Both the position numbers and the translations under genes were made by a program. The notes beneath the pieces were generated by a model. It was not told the origin of the DNA. It did not search any database and saw only the letters and a program-made list of their open reading frames with translations. A stretch of DNA of 58,566 bases from the NCBI GenBank assembly GCA_004524535.1, contig SDNY01000005.1, positions 1 through 58,566 of the forward strand. The letters run 5' to 3'. Positions 1-56,963 of this stretch are shown here, piece after piece (positions within the stretch are counted from its first letter, which is position 1; each line of letters opens with the position of its first letter). The DNA is from Promethearchaeota archaeon (GTDB lineage Archaea; Asgardarchaeota; Lokiarchaeia; Sigyniarchaeales; SOKP01).

Positions 1-259
<259 letters not shown>

Positions 260-344: not shown

Positions 345-447
345 GGGCCTGTAGATCAGTGGAAGATATGGAATATTTTCTTGGGTCATATCCAAAATCG
401 CTTGACTTGCATTCAAGAGGTCACGGGTTCAATTCCCGTCAGGTCCA
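345..447 (+). tRNA. tRNA-Ala(UGC) with a 31-nt BHB intron (366-396) at position 22/23
   Basis: Acceptor GGGCCTG/CAGGTCC-A; anticodon arm CTTGA-CT TGC AT-TCAAG; BHB TGGA-AG|A...TCCA-AA|A restores D-stem GATC/GATC. Confidence 0.93.
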
Positions 448-564
448 TTTTATGGATACTCAAATAAATTTTAGATTAATTATTTGAACTCAAATTTATT
501 AGTTACTCTTTTTTAAGGAACTGTATTTATTTTAAAGACTACTTTTTCATTCTCCAATTAAAGA

Positions 565-804: not shown

Positions 805-2047
805 TTATTTAGCAGATACTATTTTTATGATATCGTTGTGTTTTAATTCATAATTTTCACCTAATCTTTTCTTAGTTCGAGCATCAATACCGAAAATAAA
901 ATGCTTTGCTAAGTCTGAATGAATTTTCTCTCTAACAAAATCTCTTAATAGAGTCCCCTTCTTTACTAAAAAAACATCTGGTAAAACGTTGTTATTATTA
1001 TCTGAATAATCATTAATATCAGAAACGGGATAAACACAAATTAGATTTGAAATCTGAAAAGTTGCATAATTGAGAACTTGTTGTACCCCTGTTCCATTAA
1101 AAACTTTAAGTAAATCTGTTTTTATTTTATTTAGCATATCCAATTCTTTTGAATTTAATTTTTGTGGATTTCTAATTTGAAAATCGATGGATCCAGGGAT
1201 GTAATGTATAACTTTTTCATCATGATATTTTCTTAAAAAATGCTCTGCTAATGCACTGCAAGGTATAATAACGCCTTTATATTTCTTTTTTAACTCATTT
1301 AAATTATTTAAGCTAATTTCTTTATCAATTTTGTTTGCTATAATAAGAATTGGTTTGGAAATTTCTCTTAAATTTTTTGAAAATTTAAAAATTTCATTAT
1401 CTGTCCATTTTGAAGGTAATTTATTCTCCAATTTCGAATTTTTTAAAGTCAAAATAATTTGTTGTTTATTAATTTTCAGACCTGAGAGTCTTTTATGTAG
1501 ATTTTCAACTATTTTAATTTTATCTCGAAAAGATTTTGAAAATTTATTCCAATCTTCTCTTTCGAGTATATCTTTAAACCAGAAATTTATTTCATTTTCT
1601 AAAAATAAGATATCATCATAAGGATCATTTTTACCAGCACTATTTCTCTTTCCTGTCTTATCGAGTGTTCCTGTCGTATCGACAATATGTAAAAGCACAT
1701 CAGCTCTACTTAAATCATTTAGAAATTTGTTCCCTAAGCCTTTTCCCTTATGAGCATCAGGGACTAAACCTGCAACATCTAGTAAATTTATAGGAATAAA
1801 ACGATATCCATTAATACAATTGGAATTTTTTGGATTATCATCAACATTTAATTCCTTACAAACACAATTTTCTTTTGCATACGCAATACCTTTATTTGCT
1901 TCAATTGTAGTGAAAGGCAATTCACTAACTTTAGCGTGAGTTAAGCACGCAGCGTTTAAAAAAGTAGACTTGCCAGAACCTAGCCTTTTGATAAAATAAT
2001 TTACCAAAACTTGGCTTTCCGACAATTCCAAAAATTATATGACTCAT
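805..2047 (-). CDS. ychF: Obg-family ATPase/GTPase YchF (archaeal type, C-terminal TGS-like domain); two exons 2047-2011 and 1979-805; 403 aa after splicing
   Basis: PFTTIEAN, DVAGLVPDAHKGKGLGNKFL, ANKID motifs; N-terminal MSHIIFGIVGKP lies in another frame and is joined by removing a 31-nt intron. Confidence 0.93.
1980..2010 (-). other. BHB-type intron in ychF mRNA (31 nt)
   Basis: 9-bp outer helix TTGTCGGAA/TTCTGGCAA, central helix AGCC/GGCT, 3-nt bulges AA|G and AG|G, 10-bp inner helix TTTTGGTAAA/TTTATCAAAA. Confidence 0.88.
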
Positions 2048-2157: not shown

Positions 2158-4014
2158 TCAAGAAATTTTTTTGGTTTTCTCTTGTTTTGAATATAATTCG
2201 TTAATATAATCTCTTAATTCGATAAATTTTTCATTATTTTCTATTTCATTCTCATTTTTTATTTCATAATTGACGAAATTAGATTCATCCTCTTGAAAAT
2301 GATTTTCCAAATTATCTGATTGAATTTCTTTTCTTTTCAGGTGATCTTGCTTTTCTAGCGTAAATTTTTCTTTAAAATTATTAAATTGCTTATTAGAATT
2401 TCTATAAAAGCGATTAATAATCTTACTTAGACTTTTAATAAGCTTTCTTTTCTTCTCTTCCCTTCCTATTTTTTTTTTCCCATACTCTTTAAGGTTTGTT
2501 AATGCTAAATCATTATTTTTATTGATTTCTGAAGTATCTAAATACTCTCTTTCAATTAATGGTACTGATAATAAAAAAGGTTTTTTAATTGAATTTACTC
2601 GAACAATACATTGTCCTTCTTCAAGAATTGATAAATAATCCTGATTTTCTACCTCAAGATTTAATAATTCACACAAAAACTCTTTTTGCATATGAGTTTT
2701 AAAAACAATTAATCCCCCACAATTTGCCAGAATTTCTTTGCTAATATCTGGACGTGTAGCTACGGATACTAAACATTCACCTGTTCCCCTTTGCAATAGT
2801 GCAATATCTTCTAAATAAGTTGTTAATTTGGTTTGTCTGGTTAAATTTTTTGGTGCAAAGTATTGAACATCTTCAATAATAGTGATGTGTTTAATGCCTT
2901 TAAAATTATAAGCCCCGTGCGTTATATTTCTATCCCATAAATATTTTAAAATCATATTTAGAAAAAATAAGGCATCTGCTTTTTCTCCTCCTAATCTGAT
3001 AATAGAACTTAAATCTATTAAAATATTTCTTTCGAATAGATCATGAACTCTTATTTTATTTTCTGTATCGAACAAAGCTTTTAAAGAACCTAGGGAAAAT
3101 CTTCTTATTCTATTTCTAATGCTAATTAACGTTTGACTTAACATTGGAATTTCATTTTGATATATATCTGAATATGCTTTACAAAAACGGTAGAATCCTT
3201 TCCAATTCTGTAATTTTTTATTTTGACAGACTTTCGTTAAGATTTCAACTAGGACTTTCTGCATTTGGGGTGAAAATTGGGAAGATTCACTCTCATCTAA
3301 AAATTTTCCACTTTTTAAGATATCAAAAATCCTTTCCGCATGAACCTCTGGAATTGTCCCTTCTGGGTTAAATATATTTATTGAGAAATTCTCTCCTGGT
3401 CTAATTATTAATAGATTTTTTATTTTCTTTTGAAGAAAATGATACTCTCCTTTGAATTCAACAAGTAAAAAAGGAATATTATAGCGTTCTGTGAAGTTTA
3501 ACAAAAAATTTTGTATAAAATTACTTTTACCTGTGCCTGTGGCCCCACACACAAATATATGTTTCTCAAGATCCTTAATTGATAAAAAAAATGAGTTTTT
3601 TTTTTTTCTACCTTTTAGATATCTACCTAATTTAATCATCCCTTTTTTTGAACCTTGATATGAAGGAATTTCTAAATTTATAATATTTTCATCTGCTACA
3701 AGGAGAGGTAACGAAAAAAGCATTAACGAAATGCTAAAAAATGTGACTGAAAGATTAAATAAGATTATAAGAATGAGATAATCGTTAAAAGAATTTAAAA
3801 TGACATTCGAAGAATTTGTAGTGAAAAAGGACAAGGCTGCAAAAAGAAATATTGTTGAAATTATTAAGATTATAATTATGAATTTCTTAGTTTTAAGTAA
3901 AGAATAACCCTCCCTCTTATAAATATAAAAAATAATATTAATTATAAATGAAATTATACTTAAAATTAAAAAGAGTGTAATACAAAAGTCATAATTAATC
4001 TCCATTATATCCAT
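2158..4014 (-). CDS. membrane-anchored HerA/FtsK/VirB4-like ATPase (DUF87-type)
   Basis: N-terminal TM helices; HIFVCGATGTGKS Walker A; EFKGEY; IIEDVQ Walker B; ATRP. Confidence 0.8.
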   Translation of the reverse strand: MDIMEINYDFCITLFLILSIISFIINIIFYIYKREGYSLLKTKKFIIIILIISTIFLFAALSFFTTNSSNVILNSFNDYLILIILFNLSVTFFSISLMLFSLPLLVADENIINLEIPSYQGSKKGMIKLGRYLKGRKKKNSFFLSIKDLEKHIFVCGATGTGKSNFIQNFLLNFTERYNIPFLLVEFKGEYHFLQKKIKNLLIIRPGENFSINIFNPEGTIPEVHAERIFDILKSGKFLDESESSQFSPQMQKVLVEILTKVCQNKKLQNWKGFYRFCKAYSDIYQNEIPMLSQTLISIRNRIRRFSLGSLKALFDTENKIRVHDLFERNILIDLSSIIRLGGEKADALFFLNMILKYLWDRNITHGAYNFKGIKHITIIEDVQYFAPKNLTRQTKLTTYLEDIALLQRGTGECLVSVATRPDISKEILANCGGLIVFKTHMQKEFLCELLNLEVENQDYLSILEEGQCIVRVNSIKKPFLLSVPLIEREYLDTSEINKNNDLALTNLKEYGKKKIGREEKKRKLIKSLSKIINRFYRNSNKQFNNFKEKFTLEKQDHLKRKEIQSDNLENHFQEDESNFVNYEIKNENEIENNEKFIELRDYINELYSKQEKTKKIS

Positions 4015-53089: not shown

Positions 53090-53400
53090 ACCTCATCCCT
53101 CTGGATGACATACTCCAATAGTAGGTAGCGGTCTCGCAGAAGTATGACAATTGAGATGAGTACCAAAGCGCTGCTTGGGAAAGCCAAGGAAACTGCCACT
53201 ACGGGAAGCGAGATAACCGGACCAAGCGTCGAAAATCGCGCTCATAGGAACATACCCTATTGAAAATCAAACGTCCCAATTTGATGTTTGATCGTCAAAG
53301 CGATTAATTTGTTTACTTGCCGAATATGAATTATGCTTAACTATCTTACCCCTAAACCTATAAGCAAGCAATCTGAACCTTTCCTTAAGTAGACGCCAAT
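53090..53400 (+). ncRNA. 5' external transcribed spacer / processing-stem arm of the stand-alone 23S transcript
   Basis: GC-richer and hairpin-rich; AGGAACATACCC, TTGCCGAA, CTATCTTAC and CTGAACC are complementary to the 3' trailer at 56895-57010. Confidence 0.6.
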
Positions 53401-55252
53401 ACGCCTCCGCTATTTGGTGGATATCTTGGCTTGGGCACCGATGAAGAGCGTGACAAGCTGCGATAAGCTTGGGTTAGTCGCACGTAGACTTAGACCCCAA
53501 GATTCTCGAATCGGACATCCGCTTGCGGCCCAATAATCCGCAAGATTCCCATAACCGTAAGGTGAGGGAAGGGGAACTCTGAGAAGTAAAACATTTTAGT
53601 ATCAGAAGGAAAAGAAAACAATAGTGATTCCGTGAGTAACGGCGAGCGAAAGCGGAACAGGTCAAACCGAATCCGTTGGAGAAGATCCCTCGGAGATGTG
53701 GTGTATGGACCTCATACGGCCTCCCTAGAGAACATGAAAACCTCTTGAAAGTGGTGCCATAGAGCGTGATAGCCGCGTAATGGTAATCTAGAAGGCTGAT
53801 TTGAGGTATCCTGAGTAGTGCGGGATGGTTTTCTCGTACAAATGTGCCAAACACATGTTGGCAAACCTAAATATGTCCCAAGACCGATAGCGTAATAGTA
53901 GCGTGAGCGAAAGATGAAAAGTAACCCGGAAGGGTCGTGAAAAGTGCTTGAAACCAAATAGCTTAATAGGGATGCAGCCTGAAAGGAGAGATTCTGAGCG
54001 AATGTGTTCCGGTAACGGAATATCAGAGCACAGAGGACTAGGGTTGCATCATCAGTCTGGAATCATTGGCCAGGGAGTTTATAGTAGAGGCGAGCTTAAG
54101 CGTCTTACGGCGCGAAGGCATAGGGAAACCAATATTCTTGCAACCTAATTATCACATTAGGAAGATCTATTCGTCCTAGATTGGTTTTGCCATTCAAATA
54201 CGTCTAGTGAATCCTTCTAAGGGATTAGGCCAGAAGAATGGTCTCAAAGGGCCTAAAGTCTCTGTTATAAAACCCGAAGCCGGTCGATCTATTCCTGGCC
54301 AAGATGAAGCCGTTCGAAAGGACGGTGGAGGTCTGCAGTAGTGCTGACGTGCAATTCGCTTACATGAGCTGGGAATAGGAGCAAAAGGCTAATCTAGATC
54401 GGTGATAGCTGGTTCTCCCCGAAGTTGGTATCAGCCAAGTCTCAGACGAGGCAGCCAGTGGTGTAGAGCACTAATTGTGGAGCATGGGGAAGAAATTCCT
54501 CACTTTACTCTTAAACTCCGAAACTGCTGGCACTTTAGACTCTGGGAAACGGGTTGGTGGGCGTAAAGTCCATCGCCGAGAAGGGAACAACCTAGACTTG
54601 GGTTAAGGTCCCAAAGTGCAGGTTAAGTGTTAAAATAAAGGGCGTTATATTTCTAAGACAGTAAAAGGATAGGTATAGAAGTAGCCATTCCCTAACGAGT
54701 GTGTAATAACTCATTTGCCGAGAAATATAGCCCCGAAAATGGACGGGGCTTAAATCTGCCACCGAGACCCAAGGGCACGGGTAGAAGAATCCCGTGATCC
54801 GGTAGGGGAGCGTCCGAGTTGCATAGAAGCAGGTGCGCGAGTTCCTGTGGAGCGGCTCGGAGTGAAGATCCTGGTGATAGTAAAAGCAAAGATGGGTTAG
54901 AATCCCATCCGCCGAAAGGGCAAGGGTTTCTTCGCAATGCGTCGTCAGCGAAGAGTTAGTCGGTCCTAAGCGCAGCCTTAACTGGTATTGCGCGAAAGGG
55001 AAACAGGTTTATATTCCTGTACCTCGGTGCTACACTAGCGGTAACGCACGGCGTTGTGCTGACGGTTCCGGGTAAGTGGAATAGGGTCGTCGAATATCTC
55101 CCTATTTAAATGTATAAAGCTGGTAAATAGAGTAAATCTTAGACCCAGCCAAAATCATGAATAGCCCCCCAATTGTGGGAGGTTCCGCTGATCCCAGGAC
55201 CCAATGAAAAGGCAAACGCAAGGAACACCGAGTCCGTACCCAGAACTGACAC

Positions 55253-55282
55253 AAGAGCTCTATAACTGAGAGCGCTGTCAAA
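55253..55282 (+). other. 23S BHB intron 1 (30 nt)
   Basis: TGAC-AC|A...GTCA-AA|A; removal restores GACACAGGTG. Confidence 0.88.
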
Positions 55283-55723
55283 AGGTGCCCCTAGGTGAGT
55301 AGCCTAAGGCGTATTCGTGTAAAGGAGGCTAGGGAAATCGACAAATTAGAGCCGTAACCTAGGGATAAGGCTTGCTTGAGAACTTCGTTGCGCCTCACAG
55401 TGCTTCGGGGTTTCCAAGTCGCAGTGACTAGGGGGGGGCGACTGTTTAATAAAAACATAGGTCTCTGATAGAGCGAAAGCTTGTTTACAGAGGCTGACAC
55501 CTGGCCAGTGGCAGTCTGATAAATCCGGGTTACAACCCGAGTAAGTCCTGCTAAACGCCGGGAGTAACTATAACTCTCTTAAGGTAGCCAAATGCCTTGT
55601 CTGGTAAGTTCAGACGTGCATGAACGGTCCAACGTCCTCCCTATTGTCCCAGCCTTCTGACGATTGAAATCACACTCCGGCGAACGGTCCGGAGAAGCCC
55701 AACGGGACGAGAAGACCCCGTGG

Positions 55724-55753
55724 ACGGAATGAGAAATCTTCATTCCGGCGGAA
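55724..55753 (+). other. 23S BHB intron 2 (30 nt)
   Basis: CCGT-GG|A...GCGG-AA|A; removal restores GACCCCGTGGAGTTTTACTG. Confidence 0.9.
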
Positions 55754-56210
55754 AGTTTTACTGCAGCCTGTTGTTGCGGTTTTGAACTGGATACAGAGTG
55801 TAGTCGGGAGCGTAGATGCTATCATTTCGGTGGTAGTGGAGCGACTTTGGAATACCGGCTTTCTTTTTTGAAATCGCTAACGGCGTGAAAAGCGTCGGAC
55901 ACCCGCAGGTGGGCAGTTTGGCTGGGGCGGCTCACTCCAGAAAAAATATCTGGAGTAACCAATGGTCAGCTCAAGCGGGTCAGGAATCCGCTGAAGAGTT
56001 TAAGAGCAAAAGCTGGCCTGACTGGATTCTGATCACCAAGGAATCCTGAGGCGAAAGCCTGGTCTAGCGATCCTCTATTGTGCTCATGTGGCTTGTAGAG
56101 GTGATAGAAAAATTACCCCGGGGGTAACAGAGTTGTCACGAGTAAGAGCTCATATCGACCTCGTGGCTTGCTTCCTCGATGTCGGCTCTTCCTATCCTGG
56201 GAGCGCACAT

Positions 56211-56248
56211 AGCGTTTGCGTCAAATAGACCGATGTTTATGCGTGCAT
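56211..56248 (+). other. 23S BHB intron 3 (38 nt, helix 91 loop)
   Basis: GCAC-AT|A...GTGC-AT|A with inner helix GCGT/ATGC. Confidence 0.72.
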
Positions 56249-56280
56249 AACTCCCAAGGGTGGGGCTGTACGCCCATTAA

Positions 56281-56314
<34 letters not shown>

Positions 56315-56447
56315 TTCCAGTTCTCGGAAATGATATGGTTATAATTCAATTTATTGGAATAAACAGAACTTAAGAATCCTCCTAATGGATTGAATTATGA
56401 TCATGAGTAAATTTTCGGGAGTACCGATTTTTCGGGCTGGACACGAG
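56315..56447 (+). other. 23S BHB intron 4 (133 nt, no homing endonuclease ORF)
   Basis: CGTG-AG|T TCCAG...CTGGA CACG-AG|A; removal restores CGTCGTGAGACAGG. Confidence 0.92.
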
Positions 56448-56963
56448 ACAGGTCGGATTCTATCTGTTGGGCTTGTTGGAAGACTGAGGGTAAGGGAAAA
56501 TCAGTACGAGAGGAACATTTTGCCGGCGCCTCTGGTGTACCGGTTGTCTGACAAGGCATTGCCGGGCAGCTACGCGCTAACGGATAAGTGCTGAAAGCAT
56601 CTAAGCACGAAGCCGGACCCGAAAATAGTCTTCCACTCCTTTCTCAAATTGTTTGATTGATTTACTGGGACATTTTGGTTGGCTGGATTGATAAGGCATC
56701 CTGTGTAAGCCGGAAGTCGATCCGTAAAAAAGCCATAATCGGAATGGTCGGTGAGTTGGTTGACGTGCGTGGGGGCTGGTGACAGTAACCACAGGGAAGG
56801 GACGAGTGCACCCATAAAAGATGGGGTTGGTGAGACGGGGGTGTACGTGCCGAGCTTTCGGGCGAGGTATTTAGCCCGCCGTTCTCAATAGCACGAGTGT
56901 TTGGTGTTGAAAGAGGACTCGTGGTTCAGGCTTAGAGTTTATGGGTTTGTAAGATGGTGTTGT

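Follow-up and report, generated by a model that had tools for sequence, protein, structure and literature searches.

The window analysed here is a stretch of 58,566 nucleotides (nt) from a Promethearchaeota archaeon (contig SDNY01000005.1 of assembly GCA_004524535.1); the assembly comprises 198 contigs, is rated 99% complete and has a G+C content of 30.4%. On the minus strand of this window lies a gene for a YchF-related GTPase, whose reading frame is broken by 31 nt (2010..1980) within the codons of its Walker A motif (P-loop). Together with the flanking exon sequence, the insert folds into a structure of the bulge-helix-bulge (BHB) type, the motif of archaeal transfer RNA (tRNA) introns, and five further inserts interrupt four other genes of the same genome. 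The evidence set out below suggests that these inserts are introns, which would be removed from messenger RNA (mRNA) by the tRNA-splicing system. The features of the GTPase locus, in window positions, are as follows.

2011..2047, minus strand: predicted 5' exon, with the ATG at 2047, 12 codons (MSHIIFGIVGKP) and base 1 of the split Ser codon
1980..2010, minus strand: predicted BHB intron, 31 nt, comprising base 3 of bulge 1, a stem of 10 base pairs (bp) with a 4-nt loop, the 3' strand of the central helix and bases 1-2 of bulge 2
805..1979, minus strand: predicted 3' exon, with the last 2 bases of the split Ser codon, 390 codons (SGKSTFLNAACL...) and the stop
2017..2025, minus strand: exon-exon helix h, 5' strand, 9 bp, in the I-V-G-K codons, pairing with 1970-1978
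1970..1978, minus strand: exon-exon helix h, 3' strand, in the S-S-G-K codons
2013..2016, minus strand: central helix H, 5' strand, 4 bp, on the exon side, pairing with 1982-1985
1982..1985, minus strand: central helix H, 3' strand, on the intron side
2010..2012, minus strand: bulge 1, 3 nt, with the predicted 5' cut at 2011/2010
1979..1981, minus strand: bulge 2, 3 nt, with the predicted 3' cut at 1980/1979
805..2031, minus strand: false open reading frame (ORF) of 408 amino acids (aa) from TTG 2031, a gene-caller product whose false N-terminus is read through the intron

Read without removal of the insert, the frame that begins at ATG 2047 and encodes MSHIIFGIVGKP ends after 38 aa (1931..2047, minus strand). 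Removal of 2010..1980 joins 12 codons, a split Ser codon (A|GT) and 390 codons into a single frame of 403 aa, and the predicted exon junction, GIVGKP-S-SGKSTFLNAACL, restores the Walker A motif GKPSSGKS. The minimum free energy (MFE) fold of 1965-2035 (minus strand), calculated with ViennaRNA, is a strict hBHBh' motif. Its energy of -24.4 kcal/mol compares with -11.0 +/- 2.5 kcal/mol for 200 dinucleotide shuffles (z -5.40), none of which was as stable, and an explicit check of the geometry found 4/4 pairs in the central helix, an outer helix of 9 bp and an inner stem of 10 bp. A first-pass annotation, made from the letters of the window, had proposed the ATG at 2047, the 31-nt insert and the 38-aa unspliced peptide, all of which are present where it placed them. 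The BHB that it described (9-bp and 4-bp helices, two 3-nt bulges and a 10-bp stem) is identical to the MFE fold with its z of -5.40, and its reading that cuts after the second base of each bulge yield GKPSSGKS and a 403-aa ORF is borne out by translation and by intron-free homologs.

The 3' exon alone scores 462.8 bits on the NCBIfam family NF007171 ('YchF-related putative GTPase'), whose cut-off is 387; the match covers positions 14-396 of the 397 in the profile. The exon also contains the Pfam domains MMR_HSR1, YGR210-like_G4 and TGS. Profile positions 1-13, absent from this exon, are what the 12-codon 5' exon would supply. The score against the canonical YchF/OLA1 model, TIGR00092, is 66.4 bits, below its equivalog cut-off of 279.2. 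The earlier name 'ychF' is thus right as to the wider group, in that the product is a YchF-related, YGR210-like GTPase, and wrong as to canonical YchF. The gene is single-copy in the genome. Among the 120 best public homologs, the intron-free members start with M..I.GI[VI]GKPSSGK[ST]TFLNA, while seven (P0002, P0005, P0028, P0052, P0059, P0065 and P0103) start with variants of MELSESQVLVN.FIKRL.SGKS, which is the intron translated out of frame. The best of all the public homologs, at 98% identity, is itself the unspliced 408-aa call. It had been predicted that gene callers would hide the insert by choosing the false TTG start at 2031, and the public proteins that begin MELSESQVLVN... are in keeping with this.

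The same site was compared in two sets of genomes. At the species level, 33 of 34 GTPase loci are contiguous across the junction, and the remaining one (L023) is broken by 32 nt at the same place. In the second set, relatives whose records (Promethearchaeota, Hodarchaeota, Hermodarchaeota and Thorarchaeota) all fall in the NCBI 'Asgard group', the gene was found in 49 of 60 genomes, and the best 30 of these loci were examined. A precise indel among Asgard GTPase genes had been named earlier as something to look for, and it is present: 22 of the 30 loci are contiguous at the junction, and 5, the window's own included, carry 31-32 nt at the identical codon position. Three of the other four carriers belong to the genus of the window genome and one to a second genus; two members of the window genome's own genus lack the intron. 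In another three of the 30 loci, from a third genus, an insert of 45-47 nt lies about 5 nt upstream of the GTPase site and has a second bulge of 2 nt. A search of metagenome contigs with an exon-anchored pattern returned five matches, all with the insert; in the species collection, five of seven matches were true copies and two were chance matches in bacterial records.

Ten distinct copies of the intron were aligned on the specified BHB structure, which is the MFE fold of nine of them. Standard pairs fill 95.2% of the cells; sliding the 3' partners by 1-3 columns lowers this to 35-54%. Across the ten copies, five pairs are altered on both sides, one of these being a change of G-C to A-U in the central helix; the central-helix pair at columns 13/46 is G-C in five copies, G-U in four and A-U in one. 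The covariation score is 0.241, against 0.161 +/- 0.017 after shuffling, and none of 500 shuffles of these related copies reaches it.

The intron-bearing GTPase genes are under purifying selection. The ratio of nonsynonymous to synonymous substitution rates (dN/dS) is 0.067-0.10 among intron-bearing pairs and 0.14 for two pairs with intron-free genes. The five full-length intron-bearing genes, which share 63-91% identity, each keep 390-391 codons open, and the 12-codon 5' piece retains its ATG and GIVGKP in every copy.

The site itself is partly pre-adapted to its insert, because Gly and Pro codons are mutually complementary, and the helix is complete only where the intron sits. When the flanks of 40 distinct intron-free junctions were paired hypothetically in the same register, a median of 6 of the 9 pairs could form, but the run of pairs beside the central helix was at most 1 bp in 30 of the 40. 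In the five intron-bearing alleles from the protein search, 8-9 of the 9 flank pairs form. A further carrier of the gene was noticed on contig WJKE01000155.1 (L143), a 2.9-kb record binned as a Peregrinibacteria bacterium, which holds an Asgard-type GTPase gene with a 31-nt intron; this contig is probably mis-binned.

The genome encodes candidates for the enzymes of tRNA splicing. Two genes belong to the EndA family of splicing endonucleases (107.9 and 70.7 bits) and are found in the regions C100:31106-31336 and C84:30615-30863; each product is 201 aa long and has both the N- and the C-terminal EndA domain (PF02778 and PF01974). One paralogue carries a Tyr/His/Lys-like stretch that is not seen in the other, which we take to be the catalytic residues and which would fit an alpha/beta EndA pair. 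There is one gene for the ligase RtcB (561.3 bits). Asgard EndA has been assigned to the (alpha-beta)2 type, with an L1 loop tied to broad specificity, in the available part of PMC5829648. According to the accessible part of a preprint on Asgard tRNA introns, 44 of 60 Asgard genomes have two EndA paralogues, and tRNA genes are heavily interrupted (bioRxiv 10.64898/2026.10.13.758758). In the whole of the present genome ARAGORN finds 12 tRNA genes, 8 of them with introns, and the Rfam tRNA model finds 15; most tRNA genes are probably too interrupted for standard tools.

The rest of the genome was scanned for near-MFE motifs across which the frame stays open once the insert is removed. This filter left 7 candidates, then 18 with looser helices and a few more in which one bulge had 2 or 4 nt. 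Six inserts in five genes, that of the GTPase included, survive the homology tests, and the case is therefore broader than the single gene originally claimed, with at least five more inserts in the same genome. These five are as follows.

C188:175-204, plus strand: insert in the gene for ribosomal protein uL11 (L073), 30 nt, strict BHB, in-frame TAA
C113:6524-6555, minus strand: insert in the gene for the B12-binding small subunit of methylmalonyl-CoA mutase (L074), 32 nt, strict BHB
C100:12004-12033, minus strand: insert in cdhA, for the alpha subunit of carbon monoxide (CO) dehydrogenase/acetyl-CoA synthase (L150), 30 nt, second bulge of 4 nt
C189:15035-15064, minus strand: insert in the gene for the gamma subunit of 2-oxoacid:ferredoxin oxidoreductase, 30 nt, second bulge of 4 nt
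C189:15159-15188, minus strand: second insert in the oxidoreductase gamma subunit gene, 30 nt, in-frame TAA, outer helix of 1 bp, inside the GGQG codons

In each of the five, removal restores a conserved motif. The 3' piece of uL11 aligns with the archaeal L11 equivalog from profile position 26 (of 164) onward, and the joined sequence, GGPPIGPA|VGPTGIN, is that of intron-free relatives and of full-length public proteins at 96% identity (P0122 and P0123), which may stem either from strains lacking the intron or from transcripts. Among the 120 best public uL11 homologs, 28 (within P0127-P0232) have a truncated or off-frame start at or near the insertion sites. For the mutase subunit, the 3' piece matches its family profile from position 14 of 132, and the junction KPGL|DGHDRG is contiguous in 29 of the 30 relatives' loci. 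The two exon pieces of cdhA match TIGR00314 over positions 8-61 and 63-761 (981 bits), with the split codon corresponding to the missing position 62, and YMPICDMCC is contiguous in 21 cdhA loci of relatives. The two oxidoreductase junctions (loci L151 and L184), GGQG|VITLSKM and SAAA-R-GGRCWAEV, are both contiguous in the ten relatives compared. All six inserts have a central helix of 4/4 pairs, a first bulge of 3 nt, an intron stem of 6-10 bp and boundaries 2 nt past the 4-bp helix on both strands. All six also lie within the first ~70 codons of their host genes; with so few cases, this bias toward the 5' end is suggestive. The predicted unspliced peptides are 38 aa (GTPase), 30 aa (uL11) and 20 aa (mutase subunit) long. 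The five host genes have no obvious common function, two serving translation and three metabolism.

Several candidates from the same filter were rejected. The locus C55:4950-4988 has an in-frame ATG of its own in the unspliced DNA; at C115:22504-22580, a small GTPase gene, the normal N-terminus already stands in the unspliced frame; and the HdrB-like gene at C15:3655-3731 is intact when unspliced. In C138, C51, C144, C89 and the remaining candidates with looser helices or an altered bulge, gene ends were judged by eye to be fused to non-coding sequence.

Very probably, these inserts are introns that the tRNA-splicing system excises from the RNA. In the transcript of the GTPase gene, the I-V-G-K codons would pair with the S-S-G-K codons to form the outer helix, the 4-bp central helix would arise from pairing of the K-P codons with the insert's 3' end, and the remainder of the insert would fold as a hairpin. 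A heteromeric endonuclease made of the two EndA paralogues could then cut past the second base of each 3-nt bulge. Ligation of the exons by RtcB would recreate the Ser codon and the Walker A motif GKPSSGKS, and the intron would probably be circularised. The 403-aa protein would thus be made from spliced mRNA only, and the 38-aa peptide from unspliced mRNA. The first-pass proposal that this Asgard archaeon may splice a housekeeping mRNA with its tRNA machinery gains support from the fold, the junction, the covariation, the selection and the presence of genes for EndA and RtcB.

Certain observations weigh against this interpretation. In one intron copy (L068) the BHB is not the MFE fold, and in two copies (L040 and L071) the outer helix contains a G-G mismatch. 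For the metagenome copies, five rows of the covariation alignment, the search pattern fixed most exon columns, so that the free signal there lies in the stem of the intron and in its strand of the central helix; and because the ten copies are related, the shuffle counts overstate significance. Genome-wide, an initial frame-fusion scan of 7,987 raw motifs (5+4+4 bp), with decoys whose cuts were shifted by 1-2 nt, gave no bulk signal (for instance, 737 fusions at true cuts versus 738-783 at decoys), nor did a stricter scan of 35,010 raw motifs (1,560 versus 1,550-1,625). The 3-4-3 geometry is not enriched across the genome (550 occurrences versus 476-617 for eight off-geometries), and the motif is the MFE fold in 4 of these 550, versus 0-9 for the control geometries. 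The genome scan for BHB motifs that had been suggested earlier therefore delivered five further motif-restoring inserts and no bulk enrichment. Structure alone proves nothing, as such a hairpin is expected by chance several times per genome. Taken together, the structure, the exact restoration of the P-loop and the conservation and covariation go beyond chance. In addition, EndA cleavage, RtcB ligation, circular introns and the fate of the unspliced mRNA are deduced from genome sequence, and the BHB would have to form on an mRNA that ribosomes may already be reading.

Other explanations for the GTPase insert differ in what they predict for the gene and its relatives. Were the gene a pseudogene, its P-loop destroyed by a 31-nt insertion and the hairpin incidental, then an intact Walker A motif should be lacking from every frame of the unspliced DNA, as is the case, and BHB-like hairpins do arise by chance at this genomic frequency. 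Such a pseudogene would nevertheless be the only copy that a 99%-complete genome has, and decay is at odds with the 390-391 open codons and the dN/dS of 0.067-0.10 of the five full-length intron-bearing genes, with the ATG and GIVGKP preserved in the 5' piece of every copy, and with an insert geometry held by compensatory changes; other essential genes of the genome would also need to have been broken in an identical manner. Selection and covariation bring this explanation close to refuted, and its probability is considered to be extremely low. An assembly or sequencing artefact, which the fragmentation into 198 contigs might favor, has a negligible probability, given that same-site inserts differing in sequence and length (31/32 nt) occur in independent assemblies and in metagenome contigs.

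A further possibility is that the ribosome skips the insert, by programmed frameshifting or by translational bypassing of the type seen in phage T4 gene 60, where take-off and landing codons match and a stop directly follows the take-off codon. In the GTPase gene there is no stop right after the would-be take-off, the frame being open for 26 more codons, and no matched take-off and landing codons were seen when the sequence was read by eye. The stable hairpin inside the coding region and the offset of the frames by a non-multiple of 3 would suit a ribosomal mechanism, but a +2/-1 shift is unable to remove 31 nt, the inserts of uL11, cdhA and the oxidoreductase are multiples of 3 with in-frame stops, and the boundaries of all six inserts follow the EndA rule and not a ribosomal one. 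On the available text of PMC2738675, cases in the archaeal gene cbf5 were formerly confused with frameshifting. Skipping by the ribosome is considered very unlikely here. Nor is it any likelier that the 408-aa ORF from TTG 2031 is the real product and the 38-aa ORF a small gene or leader peptide. Both ORFs exist, and the long one has been called in several assemblies (7 of the 120 best homologs); yet its product is without the first beta-strand and the initial Gly of GxxxxGKS, both retained by every intron-free homolog, and codons for these absent conserved residues stand immediately upstream, in a different frame, in each copy. Its 18 N-terminal residues are the intron and 5' exon read out of frame and vary freely among copies. 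Self-splicing was also considered and set aside. Group I and group II introns have a ribozyme core and are hundreds of nucleotides long; the insert measures just 31 nt, and a scan of the window at Rfam gathering thresholds returned ribosomal RNA (rRNA) and tRNA only.

If the inserts are introns of the tRNA type, their distribution among relatives points to turnover at preferred sites. For uL11, 30 relatives' loci were compared. In five, an insert of 30 or 28 nt sits at the same site and forms a strict BHB; two carry one at a second site 9 nt upstream, of which one was solved, at 36 nt; in three it occupies a third position, upstream of that again (28-36 nt, with a second bulge of 4 nt); 18 have no insert in the compared region; and two could not be judged. 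The relatives thus have three insertion sites within ~40 nt of one another. Relatives' cdhA genes contain strict 31-nt introns at two other sites in the Cys motif, inside ICD|MCC (two genomes) and inside MCCL|C (one), and the cdhA of G007 (L173) has two apparent inserts. The solver, which handles single introns, returned no solution or anchor for L085 (uL11), L173 (cdhA), L177 and L183.

The mutase, cdhA and oxidoreductase inserts are absent from relatives with 95-98% identical proteins, and they therefore look recent. The mutase insert, for example, is missing in a relative that is 98% identical. Over the 60 nt of its flanks, there are 12 differences from the closest relative, all synonymous, whereas the 3,280 nt aligned in the same comparison (94.2% identity) average ~1.7 differences per 30 nt. 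These flank changes build the exon halves of the BHB motif, so that either the exon was remodelled or the intron came with flanking sequence. Comparison of the GTPase, uL11 and mutase introns with each other and with the whole genome gave only short, A+T-rich chance matches and no donor. The introns are located where the codons of Gly/Pro/Cys motifs give G+C-rich, self-complementary exon sequence. It is tentatively proposed, though with somewhat more doubt than belief, that this Asgard family harbors an active and still-spreading population of tRNA-type introns in protein genes, with gain and loss on the scale of species, with repeated landing, toward the 5' ends of essential genes, in the same few dozen nt of motif codons rich in Gly, Pro or Cys, and with arrival in the company of remodelled flanking exon, in a manner resembling co-conversion or homing.

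The surroundings of the GTPase gene were surveyed as well. The upstream neighbour (2158-4014, minus strand) encodes a protein of 618 aa whose N-terminal part has hydrophobic stretches and which contains a P-loop ATPase domain of the HerA/FtsK type (DUF87, 33.4 bits); this protein is not a homing endonuclease, and no homing-endonuclease gene was seen among the neighbours of the GTPase insert. At 352-448 (plus strand), ARAGORN predicts a tRNA-Met of 97 nt, of which the Rfam tRNA model covers only 384-447 (30.4 bits), and this tRNA-Met may contain an intron or extension. The 3' end of the small subunit rRNA (1-257, plus strand) and the large subunit rRNA (53392-56908, plus strand) are unlinked, lying 53 kb apart. 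The large subunit match spans 3,517 nt against a model of 2,987 positions, which leaves ~530 nt of inserts or expansion segments.

Should splicing be true, introns in protein genes that are removed by the tRNA machinery would be a regular trait of the archaea that stand closest to eukaryotes, with a bearing on the origin of split genes and of RtcB-dependent mRNA splicing. The arrival of BHB introns could then be tested on very young insertions, for which intact empty sites exist in sister genomes. Public annotation would be systematically wrong at such genes, affecting marker-gene phylogenies and metabolic reconstructions. Should the introns also be a spreading population, the closest prokaryotic relatives of eukaryotes would already have split protein genes that need RNA splicing, and the production of proteins for translation and central metabolism may be gated by the capacity of EndA and RtcB.

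Among known systems, the inserts resemble the tRNA introns of Asgard archaea in their motif and presumed enzymes, as far as these are described in the available part of the preprint (bioRxiv 10.64898/2026.10.13.758758). That part likewise reports repeated, recent and lineage-specific gains with no identified route of arrival, and the persistence of introns only where the exon can build half of the motif is common to both (bioRxiv 10.64898/2026.10.13.758758). The present genome also looks rich in tRNA introns, as do the genomes in the accessible text of that work, which itself does not treat mRNAs (bioRxiv 10.64898/2026.10.13.758758). Unlike Asgard tRNA introns, the inserts are hosted by mRNAs, so their removal must restore a reading frame.

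The introns of HAC1 and XBP1 offer a more distant parallel. In these, IRE1 cuts within two stem-loops and a tRNA ligase (RtcB in animals) joins the exons, as a regulated stress switch. Shared features are a short mRNA intron independent of the spliceosome, a structure-specific endonuclease acting with a tRNA ligase, and a change of reading frame. On the other hand, the enzyme here would be EndA and not IRE1, the structure is a BHB and not two stem-loops, and regulation is a feature of HAC1/XBP1, so that the likeness is one of analogy only. By that analogy, GTPase synthesis might be coupled to splicing capacity. A 2026 review of non-canonical splicing, in its available part, mentions HAC1/XBP1 and not cbf5 (PMC13149111).

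The closest known system is that of the cbf5 pre-mRNA introns of Crenarchaeota (Desulfurococcales and Sulfolobales), in which a hetero-oligomeric EndA cleaves between bulge residues two and three, according to the available part of PMC2738675. As of 2009, the same text states, archaeal pre-mRNA splicing was confirmed for cbf5 only and introns in other genes were predicted (PMC2738675), in agreement with the initial description of cbf5 as the documented archaeal mRNA case. In the literature searched, outside of which lie most subscription journals and supplements, no report of BHB introns in Asgard protein-coding genes was found, and an earlier report is possible. As far as the accessible account of cbf5 goes, the two sets of introns share the cut rule, a split codon within a catalytic motif (that of the catalytic Asp in cbf5 and of the Walker A Ser here), a patchy distribution among relatives and mis-annotation by gene callers. 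The GTPase, uL11 and mutase motifs are strict hBHBh', whereas most cbf5 motifs are described there as unconventional or relaxed (PMC2738675). The splicing of cbf5 is backed in that account by cDNA and enzyme evidence, while the Asgard inserts are known here from DNA alone. The cbf5 gene of the present genome is uninterrupted (TIGR00425 positions 5-320 of 322, with no stops). Unlike cbf5, the inserts belong to an Asgard lineage and to other host genes; a single genome has several interrupted genes, and relatives show several sites within one gene. The mechanism would therefore be that of cbf5; the novelty lies in the lineage and the host genes, in the number of inserts, and in their hotspots and recent gains.

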